Source: a virus
Lineage: Duplodnaviria > Heunggongvirae > Uroviricota > Caudoviricetes
Direction: 5' to 3' (one strand)
IMG/VR virus record: IMGVR_UViG_2675903434_000005
Length of the DNA: 12,547 bases
The position numbers were made by a program, and so were the translations under genes. Of the stretch, positions 4,205-12,469 are shown piece by piece. How positions within the stretch are numbered: the first letter of the stretch is position 1; each line of letters opens with the position of its first letter. Below the pieces are notes generated by a model that saw only the letters and a list, made by a program, of their open reading frames with translations, ran no database searches and had not been told where the DNA came from.

Positions 4205-4396
4205 TTAAAGACCTGCCGGGATTTCGATATTATCCTGGTGAATAACTTTATCGACCGGGTAACAGTTACCGGGAATTTTCTGTTCGGTTGCTGCAGTCAT
4301 ACACTCCTGCATTGTCCTGTGAACACTGACTGCAATATCAACTGGCTCTCCGGAAACAAGAAAAACTGTCAGAACAAGCACAAATGCTGAATTCAT
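4205..4396 (-). CDS. ydfD: YdfD-like small protein with N-terminal hydrophobic segment (63 aa)
   Basis: ATG at 4396 forms an ATGA overlap with the upstream stop, and an AGGA Shine-Dalgarno sits 8 nt upstream. N-terminus MNSAFVLVLTVFLVSG is a predicted transmembrane or signal segment. The 63-aa length and position directly downstream of dicB match Qin ydfD; assignment is by synteny and length. Confidence 0.6.
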   Translation of the reverse strand: MNSAFVLVLTVFLVSGEPVDIAVSVHRTMQECMTAATEQKIPGNCYPVDKVIHQDNIEIPAGL

Positions 4397-4581
4397 TGTG
4401 CACATCCTTTTGGCATCAGACGTAAACGAGCCAGCATTGAAACAATGCATATTTTATTTAATAGCTCCCGTTCTTGTTTTCTCTTGTTAATGGCATCTTC
4501 AGTAAATACTGGGTTACTGATAGTGACACCAATTTCAAAACAACCTTCAGACGTATTAACGTTTGGTAATAACGTTTTCAT
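4393..4581 (-). CDS. dicB: DicB-like cell-division inhibitor (62 aa)
   Basis: ATG at 4581 is preceded by a GAGGA Shine-Dalgarno at 7-nt spacing. It is 62 aa and sits directly downstream of the DicF sequence on the same strand, as in the Qin dicB operon. Confidence 0.7.
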   Translation of the reverse strand: MKTLLPNVNTSEGCFEIGVTISNPVFTEDAINKRKQERELLNKICIVSMLARLRLMPKGCAQ

Positions 4582-4750: not shown

Positions 4751-4808
4751 AAAAAGGGCGGCAGAGCAGTCACGGAGTAAAACTGATACCGCCAAACGTC
4801 ACCAGAAA
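4751..4808 (-). ncRNA. dicF: DicF small regulatory RNA (antisense regulator of ftsZ and other mRNAs)
   Basis: Minus-strand sequence TTTCTGGTGACGTTTGGCGGTATCAGTTTTACTCCGTGACTGCTCTGCCGCCCTTTTT matches the E. coli DicF sequence as I recall it, including the 3' U-tract terminator. It lies between the ydfC-like gene and dicB, as in Qin. Confidence 0.7.
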
Positions 4809-5682: not shown

Positions 5683-5861
5683 GCTGACCTCATTTCCCCT
5701 TAACGCCGGGGTAGCGGAACAAAAACCTGCTGCATAGTTATTAAAGTTGAACCCTGCCGTCATGTTCTTACGCCTCGGGCTGGCTACTTAACCCCTGACC
5801 ACTGCCTGGTAACTCGAAGTATTGCCCTGCATTCTGTAGGATGGGGTGAGGGAATGAATGA

Positions 5862-5910
5862 AGTTTAGAAAGACGAACTTTCCAGGTCAATGTTTTTTTA
5901 TCAAAACATT
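5862..5910 (-). promoter_or_regulatory. Candidate leftward early promoter (pL-like) with adjacent operator-like palindrome
   Basis: On the minus strand: TTGACC (-35, plus coordinates 5885-5890), 17-bp spacer, TAAACT (-10, 5862-5867), about 175 nt upstream of the ydfA-like start. Abutting the -35 is a perfect palindrome AATGTTTT-N6-AAAACATT (5889-5910) with the same TGTTTT/AAAACA half-sites found next to the repressor start codon. Confidence 0.4.
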
Positions 5911-5974
5911 TTAAGCAGGCAGCTGTTAAGCCATCACCACGATGGCATACAGTTAATCAAATAGATGAGGTTGG

Positions 5975-6613
5975 TTAAATATCTTGTTGAATTTTAAAGC
6001 ATACGCCCAATATGCAAGATAGATCATCCAGCATAATTGAAGGGTAGCGAGGATTCGTGGGGACTAAAAGAATATCCGGCCCTTCTATCTCCAGTTTACG
6101 AATGACAGGTGTTGTGGTCCCTTTGGGTAAGGCAAGGACAATATTTCCTGGTTGTACGGTTCGATCGGGATCAACAAAAACTGTTGAACCATTTGGGATG
6201 GAAACTCCCCCACCAGATGTTGACATACTGTCACTCTCTAGAACAACTGCAAAGGTATTGACCGGGATTTCTCCGACAAGCTGCACACAAGAGGTTATTG
6301 AGGAATTTTTCATATAATCACTCCAGCTTGCTGCCTGCTGAAGTGATAGTAGCGGAACCGTTTTTATCGGCGGTAAAGATAGATCAAGCGAATCACCTGT
6401 ATTTAACTCTCCTCCATTAAGAAGCCAATTTTCGTTTACTTTCAATATTTTTGCCAGTGAACTTATGTAACGCGAGGACGGCGCTCCTCCACCGTTCATC
6501 CATTGACTTACGGAGCCTTTTGATGCGCCAGTGCCATTGACAAGGTCTTTGCCTTTCAGGTTTAGCGCATGCATACGTTGGGTTATGCGTTCAGATATAG
6601 TTTGCTTGCTCAT
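5975..6613 (-). CDS. CI-like prophage repressor (N-terminal HTH, C-terminal S24 LexA-type autopeptidase domain)
   Basis: ORF track 5975..6613 (212 aa). C-terminal motifs align with lambda CI: LESDSM vs VEGNSM (Ser nucleophile), VFVDPDRTVQPGNIVLA vs ILVDPEQAVEPGDFCIA, IRKL vs FKKL (Lys), LVPTNPRYPSI vs LQPLNPQYPMI. N-terminus has an HTH (GASKGSVSQWMNG). Divergent from the Cro-like gene. Confidence 0.9.
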   Translation of the reverse strand: MSKQTISERITQRMHALNLKGKDLVNGTGASKGSVSQWMNGGGAPSSRYISSLAKILKVNENWLLNGGELNTGDSLDLSLPPIKTVPLLSLQQAASWSDYMKNSSITSCVQLVGEIPVNTFAVVLESDSMSTSGGGVSIPNGSTVFVDPDRTVQPGNIVLALPKGTTTPVIRKLEIEGPDILLVPTNPRYPSIMLDDLSCILGVCFKIQQDI

Positions 6614-6704
6614 GTTTTGATTTTAAAACACAGATGGTTTTGTTTCTTGACTTTCTTTGGTTTTGATTATTAAACTTTTGACGTTCAGTTTTATGGAGCG
6701 ACTC
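6613..6704. promoter_or_regulatory. Divergent switch region (OR-like): operator repeats, rightward promoter, leaderless leftward promoter
   Basis: Palindrome TGTTTT-N6-AAAACA at 6613-6630. GTTTTG starts at 6614, 6637 and 6660, exactly 23 bp apart. Rightward TTGACT (6647-6652), 18-bp spacer, TAAACT (6671-6676). Leftward TAAAAT -10 (6620-6625) ends 6 nt before the repressor ATG, implying a leaderless transcript as for lambda cI from PRM. Confidence 0.45.
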
Positions 6705-6935
6705 ATGAAAAAATCAGAAGTATTAGGCTATTTTGGCGGAGTTGTTAAAACAGCCGCAGCTCTAGGAACGTCAAAAACCACAGTCAGCATGTGGGGGGAA
6801 GAGGTTCCGTGGAAATGGGCGTTGCTAATTCAGGCAGTCACTGCCGGGGCGCTCAAATATGAGTTACACATACCGACGGTTGTCATTCCCGGTTCTGATC
6901 ATAATCCGCCTTCTAACCAAGGGGGGGATTCATGA
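6705..6935 (+). CDS. Cro-like HTH regulator of the YdaS family (77 aa)
   Basis: Part of ORF 6657..6935. Start chosen at ATG 6705 (MKKSEVLGYFGG...), with GGAG 6 nt upstream. HTH region VKTAAALGTSKTTVSMW. First rightward gene, divergent from the repressor. Confidence 0.75.
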   Translation: MKKSEVLGYFGGVVKTAAALGTSKTTVSMWGEEVPWKWALLIQAVTAGALKYELHIPTVVIPGSDHNPPSNQGGDS

Positions 6936-7357
6936 AAATCAAGCATGAACACATCCGCATGGCGATGAATGCCTGGGCGCATCCGGACGGCGAAAAAGTA
7001 CCGGCTGCGAAAATTACCAAAGCGTATTTCGAGCTGGGAATGACGTTCCCGGAACTGTATGACGACAGCCATCCGGAAGCCCTGGCTCGCAATACCCAGA
7101 AAATTTTCCGCTGGGTAGAGAAAGACACCCCTGATGCAGTTGAAAAAATTCAGGCGTTGTTACCAGCGATCGAAAAGGCAATGCCACCTTTGCTGGTGGC
7201 CAGAATGCGCAGCCACAGTTCAGCTTATTTTCGGGAGCTGGTGGAGACGCGGGAGCGACTGGTGAGAGACGCTGATGATTTTGTCGCAGTGGCAATCGCC
7301 GGTTTCAATCAGATGAACCGTGGTGGCCCGGCAGGAAATGCTGTGGCAGTACATTGA
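6932..7357 (+). CDS. ydaT: YdaT-like protein (reported functional analogue of lambda CII in cryptic prophages)
   Basis: ORF track 6932..7357 (141 aa). ATGA start/stop overlap with the upstream Cro-like gene. N-terminus MKIKHEHIRMAMN and the ~140-aa length match my recollection of Rac/CP-933P YdaT. Confidence 0.65.
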   Translation: MKIKHEHIRMAMNAWAHPDGEKVPAAKITKAYFELGMTFPELYDDSHPEALARNTQKIFRWVEKDTPDAVEKIQALLPAIEKAMPPLLVARMRSHSSAYFRELVETRERLVRDADDFVAVAIAGFNQMNRGGPAGNAVAVH

Positions 7358-7428
7358 CTGACAATAGCCATATCGAATCGCTTCCGGCAACTCGTGAGTA
7401 AAAAGATTCGGTATCAGAAGAGGTGAGT

Positions 7429-8499
7429 ATGGCTAACGCCTGGCTCAGATTATGGCATGACATGCCAAATGACCCTAAGTGGCGAACAATTGCCAGGGTG
7501 TCAGGGCAGCCAATTGCAACAGTGATGGCAGTGTATATCCACCTCCTGGTGAGCGCGTCACGAAATGTCACGCGAGGTCACATTGATGTCACGACAGAAG
7601 ATTTGGCAAGTGCGCTCGACGTGACAGAAGAGGTAATTGATTCAATTTTGCAGACGATGCAGGGGCGGGTACTTGATGGTGATTTAATCACTGGATGGGA
7701 AAAACGCCAGGTGCTGAAAGAGGACAACGGCAATATTTCGCAAACCGCAAAATCTCCGGCAGAGCGCAAGAGGGCGCAGCGAGAGAGGGAAAGAAAGCGG
7801 GAACAAAATGGCGATTGTCACGGCGCGTCACGAAATGTCACGCACATGTCACGACGAGTCACGACAGATAAAGATACAGATAAAGATACAGATCAAGAAG
7901 ATCAAAACACTATGGTCCATGGCGTAAAAAACGCCACGAACCAGGCAGGGGATGTTCAGACCGTCAATCCTGGTCAGCCAGCAGGCACGACACCGGAAGC
8001 CGATTCAGCGTATGCGCTGAAAGCCGATTCGGGCGCTGTGCAGCAGGTGATGACCCCAAGGCCGGAGCAATCACACCAACTGCAGCAGCCTGAAGCCGAT
8101 TCCGCCATTCAGCGGGAAGCCGATCGGGTAGTCCCGGAAAACACCGGGCTGTCTGTGGGACGAGTGGATTATCCGGATGTGTTCGAACAGGTCTGGCGGG
8201 AGTACCCGTTGCGTGCCGGAGCAAACCCGAAGAAATCCGCTTTCAGTGCCTGGAAGGCCAGATTACGCGAGGGGGTGCCACCAGAGGCCATGCTGGATGG
8301 CGTGAGGCGTTACGCAAGATACTTGGCGGCTACCGGGAAAACGGGAACGGAATTTGTTCAGCGAGCGACGACGTTTTTTGGACCGGACCGGAATTTTGAG
8401 AACCCCTGGTTGCTCCCGGTAAGCGGCACGAACAACCAGCGTTGTGTGAATCATATTTCTGAACCGGATACCGAAATTCCACCGGGCTTCAGGGGGTAA
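7429..8499 (+). CDS. Replication initiator (lambda O-like, replisome-organizer N-terminal domain), origin embedded in the gene
   Basis: ORF track 7423..8499. ATG 7429 is preferred, with AAGAGG about 5 nt upstream. N-terminus ANAWLRLWHDMPNDPKWRTIA resembles phage replisome-organizer N-terminal domains. The gene contains two iteron clusters and an AT-rich tandem repeat, as ori-lambda lies within O. Confidence 0.75.
   Translation: MANAWLRLWHDMPNDPKWRTIARVSGQPIATVMAVYIHLLVSASRNVTRGHIDVTTEDLASALDVTEEVIDSILQTMQGRVLDGDLITGWEKRQVLKEDNGNISQTAKSPAERKRAQRERERKREQNGDCHGASRNVTHMSRRVTTDKDTDKDTDQEDQNTMVHGVKNATNQAGDVQTVNPGQPAGTTPEADSAYALKADSGAVQQVMTPRPEQSHQLQQPEADSAIQREADRVVPENTGLSVGRVDYPDVFEQVWREYPLRAGANPKKSAFSAWKARLREGVPPEAMLDGVRRYARYLAATGKTGTEFVQRATTFFGPDRNFENPWLLPVSGTNNQRCVNHISEPDTEIPPGFRG
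7553..7600. repeat. Iteron cluster 1: four GTCAC(G) copies at 10-11 bp phasing (candidate ori)
   Basis: GTCACG at 7557, 7567 and 7588, plus GTCAC at 7577; helical-turn spacing, inside the replication initiator gene. Confidence 0.5.
7814..7866. repeat. Iteron cluster 2: five GTCACG copies at 10-11 bp phasing (candidate ori)
   Basis: GTCACG at 7817, 7827, 7837, 7848 and 7858. The 21-mer GCGCGTCACGAAATGTCACGC is shared with cluster 1. Confidence 0.5.
7867..7910. repeat. AT-rich tandem repeat next to the iterons (possible DNA-unwinding element with two GATC sites)
   Basis: Perfect 2 x 12-bp tandem GATAAAGATACA (7867-7890), then GATCAAGAAGATCAAAAC; encodes DKDTDKDTDQEDQ within the initiator. Confidence 0.45.
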
Positions 8500-10304: not shown

Positions 10305-10484
10305 ATGAAAAACGCATTGCAGTTTTTGTTTGTTGCGTTCTGGTTGTTCGTATCATGTATGCCCATCATCTTCACAGCAAGGTATATGGAAAAAGTTGAT
10401 GTTTTGATATTAATATTTGGATATATAAATGCCCTTTTTTTAGGGGTGTTCATGGCGGTCATGTGCATTGAATACTGGCGGTAA
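10305..10484 (+). CDS. Small two-helix membrane protein (59 aa) on an AT-rich islet
   Basis: Part of ORF 10266..10484. Start chosen at ATG 10305, with a perfect AGGAGG 5 nt upstream. Two hydrophobic helices (ALQFLFVAFWLFVSCMPIIF and VLILIFGYINALFLGVFMAVMCI). GC is visibly lower than in the flanks. Confidence 0.55.
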   Translation: MKNALQFLFVAFWLFVSCMPIIFTARYMEKVDVLILIFGYINALFLGVFMAVMCIEYWR

Positions 10485-10567: not shown

Positions 10568-10686
10568 GACTGCGGGTGCTTGAGGCTATCTGTCTCAGGC
10601 ATGAACACCAAAAGGCAGATAGAGAAAAGCCCCAGTTAACATTACGCGTCCTGCAAGACGCTTAACATTAATCTGAGGCCATATCT

Positions 10687-10746
10687 ATGCGACACATAGA
10701 GATTAGCCTCTTACGGACCGAAAGGTCAAGGAGAAGCAGGCTATGA
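10687..10746 (+). CDS. Short leader ORF translationally coupled to hok (mok-like, 19 codons)
   Basis: ATG 10687 with GAGG upstream; its TGA stop (10744-10746) overlaps the hok ATG (10743-10745) as ATGA. Confidence 0.35.
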   Translation: MRHIEISLLRTERSRRSRL

Positions 10747-12459: not shown

Positions 12460-12469
12460 NNNNNNNNNN
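12460..12469. other. Run of 10 ambiguous bases (assembly gap or mask)
   Basis: Literal n x 10 in the sequence. Confidence 0.99.

Follow-up and report, generated by a model that had tools for sequence, protein, structure and literature searches.

A probable lysis/lysogeny switch with its own repressor and operators in a lambdoid prophage of Escherichia coli

Introduction

The closest described systems are the immunity regions of the prophages CP-933P and Qin and of phage lambda. In CP-933P (Sp12) of E. coli O157:H7, the PaaR2-YdaS-YdaT module has been characterized in detail (Jurenas et al. 2021, PMC8630535; Prolic-Kalinsek et al. 2023, PMC9986795). The 5'-RACE starts were in line with the predicted promoters PR933P and PRM933P, leaderless translation of the paaR2 mRNA was proven by the RACE start together with N-terminal sequencing, and reporter assays showed that PaaR2 and YdaS repress PR, PRM and PL. 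YdaT was footprinted on the site OM, an inverted repeat of the form TTGATT-N6-AATCAA (PMC9986795). In Qin of E. coli K-12, DicA and DicC have been reported to form a bistable switch on dicBp, and the dicA mRNA is leaderless, as are the racR and ymfK mRNAs of K-12.

In this work, we analyzed a window of 12,547 nucleotides of viral DNA, a part of which had been described in a sequence-only reading as a lambda-like bistable switch with palindromic operators, phased repeats and a probable leaderless repressor mRNA. The sequence features named in that reading all lie where it placed them, and every computationally testable part of its interpretation is supported, with corrections that are given below. 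The region probably serves as the lysis/lysogeny (immunity) switch in an E. coli prophage of lambdoid type, belonging to the Qin/Rac/CP-933P group, with an immunity specificity of its own. We consider this the best overall explanation of the repressor, the operators, the Cro-like protein and YdaT, and a likely one, with binding and transcript ends drawn from analogy. The locus has its own repressor and its own operator sequence but would work in the manner of switches already studied in detail, and the concepts of lambdoid switches are unchanged by the finding.

Comparison with CP-933P, Qin and lambda

The locus shares with CP-933P the prophage backbone and the gene order, with a leftward repressor gene, a Cro analogue, YdaT and replication genes; the divergent region is 91 bp here and 97 bp there. 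PR reads TTGACT-18-TAAACT in both (in a CP-933P-type locus as read), the repressor ATG lies 6 nt after the -10, strong and weak operators alternate in OR, an operator copy is found at PL, and a YdaT box, a putative one here with a degenerate left half, covers the ydaT start codon. In contrast, the repressor is an S24/LexA-like protein of 212 aa, whereas PaaR2 has no peptidase domain and is encoded in the operon of a toxin-antitoxin pair, and the Cro analogue comes from another family, P22_Cro/DicC. The operator is of the type GTTTTGAT...AAAACA instead of GTTTAGTAA, with a spacing of 23 bp instead of about 19.5 bp (in the CP-933P-type locus L094 as read), and OR3 lies over the start site, whereas IR1 of CP-933P is located at about -12 to -29.

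The resemblance to Qin lies in a DicA-like N-terminal region of the repressor (35% identity over 65 aa by BLASTP), a DicC-like Cro analogue, the same leftward operon, a PL -35 that reads TTGACC in both, and an operator abutting the repressor start codon. DicA, however, has 135 aa without an S24 domain and is relieved by the antirepressor Rem, its operators are of the TGTTAGT...ACTAACA type and flank the -35 of dicBp on both sides, where only the upstream one is recognizable here, and Qin has no ydaT at this position.

With lambda, the locus has in common a repressor of two domains, the C-terminal one of the S24 type, three operators (23 bp apart here, 24 and 23 bp in lambda), OR1 and OR2 on PR in nearly the same register, a PRM -10 that is 6 nt from the ATG of a repressor gene (lambda cI is leaderless), operator copies at PL, and a gene for a CII-type activator after cro. 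Unlike in lambda, the start sites of PR and PRM are about 70 bp apart rather than 82 bp, PL has one operator instead of three, the presumed cleavage position carries Ala-Ala instead of Ala-Gly, and the CII analogue is the unrelated YdaT. The locus thus provides a natural S24-domain counterpart to the experimentally studied DicA and PaaR2 switches.

An exchangeable immunity cassette

Homology to prophages of other immunity types stops at position 5848 and resumes at 6927, delimiting a cassette of about 5849–6926. The flanks (5700–5848 and 6927–7400) are 84–99% identical to prophages bearing different regulators, and the cassette is exchangeable between these otherwise homologous prophages, as heteroimmune lambdoid phages exchange theirs. 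It comprises PL with one operator, the 212-aa repressor gene, a tripartite OR and the gene of the P22-Cro/DicC family, and is followed by ydaT. Each of the sister cassettes, L010, L011, L012 and Qin, has a different motif that is common to its own OL and OR.

The operon to the left of the cassette is of the ydfA/DUF1391, ydfB, ydfC, DicF sRNA and dicB type. The cassette presumably controls this dicF/dicB cell-division-inhibitor operon together with prophage induction, so that knowledge of its operators and of the true start of the repressor helps annotation and the prediction of immunity groups. At least 1035 of the 5426 complete E. coli genomes contain the cassette when this allele alone is counted, approximately one in five. 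The coexistence of a CI-like repressor with YdaT, previously described as a mosaic combination, is therefore real but common.

The repressor and its start codon

The repressor gene occupies 5975–6613 on the minus strand and encodes an N-terminal helix-turn-helix domain like those of DicA, 434 and P22 C2, followed by a C-terminal S24 domain of the LexA and lambda CI type. The S24 domain scores 49.4 bits in Pfam (Peptidase_S24, PF00717, E=4.3e-13; cut-off, 23.3 bits), and the Pfam HTH_3 match is weak (E=3.9e-4), its 20.8 bits falling just under the cut-off of 23. The N-terminal domain is nevertheless recognized by NCBIfam DicA over residues 1–71 (E=1.5e-9), and the N-terminal domains of 434 and P22 C2 align from residues 1–6. 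Intact lambda CI (3bdn) matches residues 13–204 with E=7.5e-10, and structures of its C-terminal domain match with E=4e-9 to 5e-8, in agreement with the earlier description of the protein as CI-like; its identity to any characterized phage repressor is nonetheless about 28–30% or lower. Ser129 (in SDSM) and Lys173 (in IRKL) align with the catalytic Ser149 and Lys192 of lambda and are kept in all alleles. The counterpart of lambda Ala111-Gly112 is Ala94-Ala95 (QQAASW), invariant in the alleles and different from the Ala-Gly or Cys-Gly usual at a scissile position, whereas the sister cassette L010 has AG there. RecA-stimulated self-cleavage is therefore not assured.

Judged by coding signature and alignments, the start codon is the ATG at 6613. 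Within the first 13 codons, the alleles show 0, 1 and 5–6 changes at codon positions 1, 2 and 3, respectively, and a TAA in the same frame precedes the ATG by 9 nt. This coding signature, together with the helix-turn-helix alignments that begin at residues 1–6, argues against the two downstream starts in existing records, M14 in a phage record and M101 in RefSeq. The latter was probably chosen because M101 is preceded by a GGAG Shine-Dalgarno (SD) sequence. The RefSeq records examined annotate only the C-terminal 113 aa, and this truncated stretch corresponds to a PHROG of unknown function, so that the repressor, which is among the most informative genes of a prophage, is mislabelled in these records and probably in many more.

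Predicted operator sites at OL and OR

A palindrome TGTTTT-N6-AAAACA had been proposed at both promoter regions, and exactly two copies are present in the window, at 5891–5908 (extendable to 5889–5910) and 6613–6630, where 0.10 is expected from whole-window shuffles. No further copy was found in the whole window even with 1 mismatch. The first copy, OL (5889–5910), is the palindrome AATGTTTT-N6-AAAACATT, whose 18-mer core at 5891–5908, TGTTTTTTTATCAAAACA, matches the pattern exactly; on the minus strand OL reads TGTTTTGATAAAAAAACA. It had been placed at the leftward promoter, where it indeed lies, but it abuts the -35 of PL, overlapping its first 2 bp with the center at about -44.5, rather than covering the core promoter.

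The other copy is OR3 (6613–6630, TGTTTTGATTTTAAAACA), which extends over the start codon of the repressor gene and over both the -10 and the presumed start site of PRM. It is followed by OR2 (6636–6653, GGTTTTGTTTCTTGACTT), with a conserved left half-site, a degenerate right half and the PR -35 inside it, and by OR1 (6659–6676, GGTTTTGATTATTAAACT), which overlaps the PR spacer and -10 (TAAACT, 6671–6676). None of the four sites is assigned to a strand. GTTTTG half-sites begin at 6614, 6637 and 6660, exactly 23 bp apart as had been noted, so the 91-bp gap between the divergent repressor and cro-like genes holds two strong sites and one half-site in phase. The proposed resemblance to lambda OR1-OR2-OR3 holds for the spacing but not for the completeness of OR2 or for the register relative to PRM, which is about 10 bp off that of lambda. 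The consensus of the 18-bp sites is tGTTTTGAT-N3-AAAACA, and in a position weight matrix built from the four sites, OR2 among them, OR1 ranks best in the window, OL third and OR2 fourth (18.5). Across the window, 6 copies of the half-site GTTTTGAT are present where 0.78 would be expected.

Both intergenic regions are AT-rich (31% and 45% GC), and consensus promoter hits alone are not significant (3 found against 2.2 expected from shuffles), which would suit a chance origin of the palindromes and phased repeats in AT-rich promoter DNA. When the two AT-rich intergenic stretches were shuffled 20,000 times with their dinucleotide composition preserved, however, the palindrome arose with P=1e-4 in the OR stretch and P=5e-5 in the OL stretch and never in both, no perfect 6-N6-6 palindrome of any sequence was ever common to the two stretches, and three equally spaced GTTTTG copies appeared in 5e-5 of the shuffles. 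These local shuffles, together with the conservation in alleles described in the next section, effectively rule out chance.

Several additional sites were considered and rejected. The best candidate for an extra OL site in the PL core (5862–5879) matches at 11 of 18 positions, 6 of which are the -10 itself, and it is polymorphic in 80 near-identical loci and diverged in the alleles; no conserved operator was recognized in the PL core, where sister cassettes have one. A fourth in-phase OR site (6682–6699) matches at about 8 of 18 positions and is not conserved. Reading ATCAAAAC as an IHF site is disfavored by eye, as its flanks misfit the IHF consensus, WATCAANNNNTTR. A literature search for the operator strings found no paper.

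The sites might instead be targets mainly of another regulator, the Cro/DicC-like protein alone or YdaT, with the S24 repressor recognizing something else. Both strong OR sites contain TTGATT, the YdaT half-site (6617–6622 in OR3 and 6663–6668 in OR1), and the YdaT encoded here shares 90% identity with the CP-933P protein footprinted on TTGATT-N6-AATCAA. A perfect palindrome on the PRM side would also suit a Cro-like protein, given that the PRM-side operator of lambda is the one that Cro binds best and CI worst. However, the inverted repeat TTGATT-N6-AATCAA is absent from OR and OL, which have single half-sites only, with TTGATA in OL, and YdaT is without effect on PR, PRM and PL in CP-933P. 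Furthermore, ydaT is a gene outside the immunity cassette that other immunity types also possess, whereas the operator motif is particular to this cassette, and a lambdoid repressor and its Cro normally share operators. We therefore regard such a regulator as very unlikely and retain the repressor, together with the Cro analogue, as the predicted ligand.

Conservation of the operators

Alleles whose repressor is 84% identical have changed at 36–42% of third codon positions, while the three 18-mers of the divergent region keep 53 of 54 bases in each of the two such alleles compared, L002 and L005. OR3 is conserved at 17/18 positions in L002 and 18/18 in L005, OR2 at 18/18 in both, and OR1 at 18/18 in L002 and 17/18 in L005, where the sole change, G6659T, is towards the consensus. 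At the same level of divergence OL keeps 21 of 22 bases, whereas 3–4 of the 5 bp (60–80%) in the spacer immediately left of OR2 (6631–6635) have changed. Over the two alleles, 2 changes in 108 operator positions compare with 165 in 424 third codon positions (Fisher p=3e-17). Allele variation is concentrated in the 6631–6635 spacer, around the PR start (6679–6682) and in the PL spacer. The 80 near-identical loci show no polymorphism in OR3 or OR2, and in OL they vary only within the central T run. Judged by these alignments, the palindromes and phased half-sites are phylogenetic footprints.

The alleles with 84% identity have the same recognition helix, ASKGSVSQW, as the repressor described here, in keeping with their unchanged operators. 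In the L002–L004 lineage the same half-site position (position 6 of TGTTTTGAT) is changed in both OR3 and OL, a parallel change that may hint at co-variation between operator and recognition helix. More distant relatives of the repressor were absent from two scans of species-representative genomes, viral contigs yielded only copies at least 98% identical, and a word-index protein search returned nothing below 72% identity except fragments; the next phage repressors are about 30% identical and have unrelated operators.

A different reading takes the locus as a decaying cryptic-prophage remnant, whose features are relics without a working switch. The Ala-Ala at the scissile position would agree with decay, as would a 102-bp in-frame deletion in the repressor linker together with a 1-bp deletion in OL in the alleles L006 and L007, a frameshifted cro-like gene in some genomes, and the fact that the phage records with the cassette are in-silico prophage predictions rather than induced virions. 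On the other hand, purifying selection on the repressor is strong (77 changes at third codon positions against 17 and 17 at the first and second) and stronger still on the operators, a cluster of 802 sequences has an intact 212-aa protein as its representative, and the cassette is widespread in complete genomes. Qin and CP-933P are cryptic too and still have working bistable switches. We consider decay quite improbable and a functional switch the better account.

Promoters and the repressor transcript

TAAACT had been named as the -10 of both candidate early promoters, and a promoter scan returned both. PL is TTGACC-17-TAAACT (5890–5862, minus strand), with the -35 at 5885–5890 and the -10 at 5862–5867; it is the predicted promoter of the leftward ydfA-ydfB-ydfC-dicF-dicB-type operon and the analogue of dicBp and lambda PL. 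Its -10 is invariant in L002–L005, where the adjacent spacer varies, and individual loci among the 80 near-identical ones vary at 5862 and 5867; the flank conserved with other immunity types ends just downstream, at 5848. The -35 is TTGATC in diverged alleles, and a -35 (TTGACT or TTGACC) lies at the equivalent place in the sister cassettes L010 and L012 and in Qin. An alternative PL with a -10 TAAAAT at 5908–5913 was discarded, as the hexamer is not kept in L002–L005. On the plus strand, PR is TTGACT-18-TAAACT (6647–6676), its -35 at 6647–6652.

The repressor ATG has no SD sequence: the computed duplex ΔG is +0.9 kcal/mol, compared with -5.6 for the cro-like gene, -11.0 for ydaT and a background median of -2.4. 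As previously noted, a TAAAAT, read from the sequence as the candidate PRM -10 (6620–6625, minus strand), lies 6 nt (CAAAAC) before the ATG at 6613–6611. This geometry, which is the same in lambda cI and in paaR2 (GATAAT-N6-ATG), predicts that the repressor mRNA is leaderless or nearly so and starts at the A of the ATG at 6613. Alternatively, the repressor might be translated from transcripts of upstream promoters only, either a PRE-type promoter near ydaT or an intergenic one, by SD-independent initiation on an A/U-rich leader. The TAAAAT promoter has a poor -35 (AAGAAA) and was not called by the scan, a TAnnnT near an ATG easily arises by chance in DNA of 31% GC and is weak evidence alone, and a PRE-type transcript must use the same SD-less ATG in any case. 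Against this, the -35 of lambda PRM is poor too, the hexamer and its 6-nt spacer are invariant across alleles except at 6618 in L002–L004, and the same spacing goes with mRNAs that are leaderless in lambda cI and paaR2, as the dicA, racR and ymfK mRNAs also are. We find upstream promoters as the only source unlikely and favor a leaderless transcript, which would add one more case to the pattern of E. coli prophage repressors made from leaderless mRNAs.

With a PRM start at 6613, the centers of OR3 and OR2 fall at about -8.5 and -31.5; in lambda, the corresponding centers are at -19 and -42. The shorter distance between the two start sites thus places OR3 and OR2 some 10 bp nearer to PRM, and this speaks against activation of PRM from OR2 in the manner of lambda. 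The repressor is accordingly unlikely to stimulate its own synthesis from OR2, and the switch may follow a logic other than that of lambda.

The Cro-like protein and YdaT

The rightward genes had been described as YdaS/YdaT-type, which is right for the second gene only. The first, at 6705–6935 on the plus strand, encodes a 76-aa protein of the P22_Cro/DicC family (Pfam P22_Cro, PF14549, E=9.4e-16, 57.8 bits, above the cut-off of 30.2; NCBIfam DicC, E=1.5e-7, under the subfamily cut-off; PHROG 409), and no YdaS-family match at E<=0.01 was found for it in Pfam or NCBIfam. Its start is preceded by the SD sequence GGAG (6695–6698). An upstream in-frame ATG at 6693 was rejected, with a duplex ΔG of +0.3 against -5.6 for 6705 and the ATG lost in L005.

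The second gene (6932–7357, plus strand) is ydaT, the CII analogue, whose 141-aa product belongs to Pfam YdaT_toxin (PF06254) and to PHROG 163, 'CII-like transcriptional activator'. The protein is 90% identical to the CP-933P crystal structure 8bt1 (E=1e-81) and 97% identical to 3c4r (E=2e-90). A putative YdaT box, GGGATT-CATGAA-AATCAA, the counterpart of OM in CP-933P, lies over the cro stop and the ydaT start (6925–6942, no strand assigned). It matches TTGATT-N6-AATCAA at 10 of 12 positions, with 4 of 6 in the left half GGGATT, and L094 has TTGATT-CATGAA-AATCAA at the same place. Since homology with other immunity types starts at 6927, the left half-site of the box sits on the cassette boundary.

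A model for the switch

By analogy with lambda, CP-933P and Qin, we infer which protein binds which site, the 5' ends of the transcripts, repression and activation, bistability and SOS inducibility. The 212-aa repressor would be made from the weak PRM, and its dimers would occupy the 18-bp sites: OR1 over the PR -10, the weaker OR2 over the PR -35, OR3 over the -10, start site and ATG of PRM, and OL abutting the PL -35 as one further site. Occupation of OR1 and OR2 would switch off PR and with it the cro-like gene, ydaT and the replication genes, whereas occupation of OL, alone or through a loop of about 720 bp between OL and OR, would silence PL and the dicF/dicB-type operon, and occupation of OR3 would limit repressor synthesis. 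The P22-Cro/DicC-family protein made from PR would bind the same sites and switch off PRM, leading to two mutually exclusive states. YdaT, bound at the box over its own start codon, may activate PRE-type transcription that runs leftward through cro and on into the repressor gene.

The only perfect palindromes are OR3, on the repressor start site (+1 to -17), and OL, just upstream of the PL -35 and without a conserved operator in the PL core. This raises a further possibility, a lambdoid switch wired unlike lambda in several respects at once. Silencing of the toxic dicF/dicB operon would then hinge on the OL-OR loop or on contacts at the -35 or with the alpha subunit, PRM would be subject to self-repression only, with no activation by CI, and the CII analogue might bind OR directly through the embedded TTGATT. 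We give this combination as a whole only a small chance.

On the minus strand, 30 nt downstream of the repressor stop codon, RNA folding yields a hairpin, GCCAUC-GUGGU-GAUGGC (5930–5946), within a 95-nt stretch (5886–5980) whose fold z is -2.8 with the OL palindrome folded as a hairpin included. It has no U tract. The allele substitutions are all in the loop (5936–5940) while the stems are invariant, and the hairpin may mark the end of the repressor transcript.

Prophage setting and immunity cassette

The window covers the early region of a lambdoid prophage of E. coli, with genes for an integrase, an excisionase, a RecE-like exonuclease, dicB (ORF 4393-4581, minus strand), the DicF sRNA (4756-4807, minus strand; Rfam RF00039, 76.7 bits), ydfC, ydfB and DUF1391/ydfA, beyond which lie the switch locus and then an O-like replication gene, with hok/sok further to the right. 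The match to the sok antisense RNA (10574-10745, plus strand; Rfam RF01794, 106.7 bits) indicates that the late-early region holds a hok/sok toxin-antitoxin locus. Because DicF and dicB come after DUF1391/ydfA, ydfB and ydfC in the leftward direction, the leftward promoter PL, under operator control, would drive a homologue of the Qin dicBF cell-division-inhibitor operon. Positions 12460-12469, not far from the window's right-hand end, are a run of 10 N, which are masked or gap bases.

A 1.7-kb stretch was covered to at least 80% in 1035 of 5426 complete E. coli genomes. Many further genomes match the flanks only (5700-5848 and 6927-7400) and have different regulators between them, which delimits an immunity cassette of about 5849-6926. 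The cassette encloses both operator palindromes; its left boundary lies a short way downstream of the PL -10, and on the right it reaches the left half of the YdaT box. Qin and three sister cassettes that share this backbone (L010, L011, L012) each carry their own motif common to OL and OR, which is how immunity-type-specific operators should look. The nearest systems are CP-933P PaaR2-YdaS-YdaT (PMC8630535, PMC9986795), dicA/dicC/dicBp of Qin, and lambda, and the architecture is the same as theirs. In its details the repressor sequence is new: among other phage repressors the nearest shares about 30% identity, no relatives were found in one-genome-per-species scans, and the operator sequence was not found in the searchable literature. 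A new repressor and operator sequence on a known architecture amounts to a well-known kind of switch with a new immunity specificity.

The repressor and its start codon

The repressor gene (5975-6613, minus strand) encodes 212 amino acids with an N-terminal HTH and a Peptidase_S24 domain. The latter, together with a match to lambda CI (3bdn, E=7.5e-10), bears out the CI-like assignment of the sequence-only reading; the N-terminal domains of 434 and P22 C2 also match, as does NCBIfam DicA over residues 1-71 (E=1.5e-9). The annotated start varies among records. Two RefSeq loci (L008, L009) have a 113-residue protein from Met101 (6313), named 'LexA family protein', which leaves the HTH domain unannotated, and a phage record (L001) has 199 residues from Met14. 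In codons 1-13 the first, second and third positions have 0, 1 and 5-6 changes, a TAA in frame precedes the ATG at 6613 by 9 nt, and the 434, P22 C2 and DicA domain alignments begin at residues 1-6, which together place the start at 6613. Met101 has a GGAG of its own (dG -5.9 kcal/mol), but the codon pattern and the domain alignments favour 6613. The repressor is therefore annotated too short in the public records examined, which is the most useful practical point of this analysis. PHROG 8558 ('unknown function', 114 positions) matches residues 101-212 exactly and so seems to have been built from truncated repressor calls.

The GGAG (6314-6330, minus strand), 7 nt ahead of the internal Met101 codon and just past the putative cleavage site, probably misleads gene callers. 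It may have arisen by chance from the conserved SWSDYM codons, or Met101 could be a real internal start yielding a protein of the C-terminal domain only. Ser129 and Lys173 are present, and Ala94-Ala95 occupies the position of the Ala-Gly bond, a caveat for any predicted SOS induction. In the S24-type repressors of sister cassettes L010 and L012, the catalytic-serine position aligns with Ala (GDAM) or Thr (DDTM), suggesting that some 'LexA family' prophage repressors of this kind cannot self-cleave.

Operators and their conservation

The palindrome TGTTTT-N6-AAAACA, previously noted as shared by PL and the repressor start, is present as exact matches at 5891-5908 and 6613-6630, two in 12.5 kb, and a search of the whole window with one mismatch allowed gave nothing beyond these copies (0.10 expected). 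Because the two intergenic stretches are AT-rich (45% and 31% GC), the test was redone on dinucleotide-preserving shuffles of those stretches alone. The palindrome then arose at frequencies of 1e-4 in the OR stretch and 5e-5 in the OL stretch and never in both together, and no perfect 6-N6-6 palindrome of any sequence was common to both in 20,000 shuffles. The GTTTTG half-sites at 6614, 6637 and 6660 are indeed 23 bp apart, and an equally spaced triplet occurred in 5e-5 of local shuffles.

The likeness among sites extends further than first described. OR3 (6613-6630) and OR1 (6659-6676) on the plus strand and OL (5889-5910) on the minus strand share the pattern (T/G)GTTTTGAT-N3-(A/T)AAAC(A/T), and OR2 (6636-6653) retains GGTTTTG only. 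The 8-mer GTTTTGAT has 6 copies in the window versus 0.78 expected, including minus-strand copies at 7901 and 11758. At 10398-10417 (plus strand), within small overlapping ORFs upstream of hok/sok, there is a lone ATGTTTTGAT left half-site resembling that of an operator (TGTTTTGATATTAATATT), the fifth-best in the window by a weight matrix built from the four sites.

Alleles with an 84%-identical repressor (L002-L005) were retrieved and aligned. Within the repressor gene 36-42% of third codon positions differ, whereas the three OR 18-mers show one change in 54 bases per allele (2/108 versus 165/424; Fisher p=3e-17). Of the 5 positions in the spacer 6631-6635, 3-4 are changed in the diverged alleles, and 6679-6682, around the predicted start of the rightward promoter PR, is also variable. 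OL has one change per allele (21/22 conserved); at PL, the -10 is invariant, the -35 retains TTGA, and 5-7 of the 17 spacer positions differ. These alleles share an identical recognition-helix segment, ASKGSVSQW. Among 80 near-identical viral-contig copies, OR3 and OR2 show no polymorphism and OL is polymorphic in its central T run only.

In L002-L004 (repressor allele P0004), position 6 of TGTTTTGAT is altered in OR3 (6618 T to C) and OL (5903 T to A, operator strand) alike, with the remainder intact; this could be a concerted operator change or simply a position without protein contact. L006 and L007 have a 102-bp in-frame deletion (equivalent to 6314-6415) by which the repressor loses its linker and putative cleavage region, leaving 178 amino acids, and a 1-bp deletion in the OL central T run (equivalent to 5893) that shortens the half-site spacing. 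Between the repressor stop codon and OL lies a conserved hairpin (5930-5946, minus strand; 6-bp stem) in which every substitution among alleles falls in the loop; as no U tract follows, it is not a canonical terminator.

Promoters and a predicted leaderless repressor mRNA

Both early promoters carry the TAAACT -10 originally proposed, as TTGACT-18-TAAACT for PR (6647-6676, plus strand) and TTGACC-17-TAAACT for PL (5890-5862, minus strand). A consensus scan gave 3 hits versus 2.2 expected, so that hits alone are not above expectation. By our own reading of the CP-933P-type locus, PR933P is likewise TTGACT-18-TAAACT, and in the CP-933P paper 5'-RACE starts agree with the predicted promoters.

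OR1 lies over the PR spacer and -10 and the PR -35 falls within OR2, a register close to that of OR1 and OR2 on lambda PR. Relative to a predicted start of the repressor promoter PRM at 6613, OR3 spans +1 to -17 and OR2 -23 to -40, whereas the lambda centres are at -19 and -42. Since this register is unlike that of lambda, activation of PRM from OR2 in the lambda manner is not a safe assumption. At PL there is one OL site, centred at about -44.5, and its extended arms reach 2 bp into the -35. Qin and the sister cassettes differ in having an extra operator in the PL spacer or -10, where none is recognisable or conserved here. Repression of PL may come about through occlusion at the -35, or an OL-OR loop of about 720 bp may be responsible.

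On the reverse strand, TAAAAT-CAAAAC-ATG (6625-6611) places TAAAAT 6 nt from the repressor ATG, as had been noted. No Shine-Dalgarno sequence is present in the 20 nt upstream of the ATG at 6613 (duplex dG +0.9 kcal/mol, compared with -5.6 for cro and -11.0 for ydaT). Lambda PRM likewise has a -10 hexamer, 6 nt and ATG, as does CP-933P paaR2 (GATAAT-TACCAC-ATG in the CP-933P-type locus L094). The paaR2 mRNA is leaderless according to the 5' RACE, N-terminal sequencing and mass spectrometry of the CP-933P study, and dRNA-seq has revealed leaderless repressor mRNAs in Qin (dicA), Rac (racR) and e14 (ymfK). By analogy, a leaderless repressor mRNA is a well-founded prediction here.

Cro-like protein, YdaT and the proposed circuit

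The rightward genes had been described as YdaS/YdaT-type, which stands for the second (6932-7357, plus strand), whose product is 90% identical to crystallised CP-933P YdaT (8bt1) and 97% to 3c4r, but not for the first (6705-6935, plus strand), which belongs to the P22_Cro/DicC family rather than YdaS. The sites, their selective conservation, the protein families, the start codon, the absent Shine-Dalgarno sequence and the cassette boundaries are direct observations, from which a circuit can be proposed with all binding and regulatory steps inferred from lambda, CP-933P and Qin. The repressor on OR1, OR2 and OL would silence PR and PL, and occupancy of OR3 would limit PRM. The Cro/DicC-like protein would compete for the same sites and silence PRM, and YdaT would bring about establishment transcription.

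The published YdaT site OM is TTGATT-N6-AATCAA (PMC9986795). In CP-933P-type loci, recognised by PaaR2 (MQKKE...), it reads TTGATT-CATGAA-AATCAA over the ydaT start codon, and the window has a putative YdaT box, GGGATT-CATGAA-AATCAA, at 6925-6942. The conserved block includes the right half of this box and GATT, and its left two bases are cassette-derived and part of the G-run Shine-Dalgarno of ydaT. In CP-933P, YdaT turns on a leftward PRE-type promoter at this box, and by analogy such a promoter is likely here too. The G run (6921-6927) upstream of ydaT, which doubles as the Shine-Dalgarno and the degenerate left half of the box, has 6 or 7 G (loci L152, L159, L160 and L171 versus L103 and L166).
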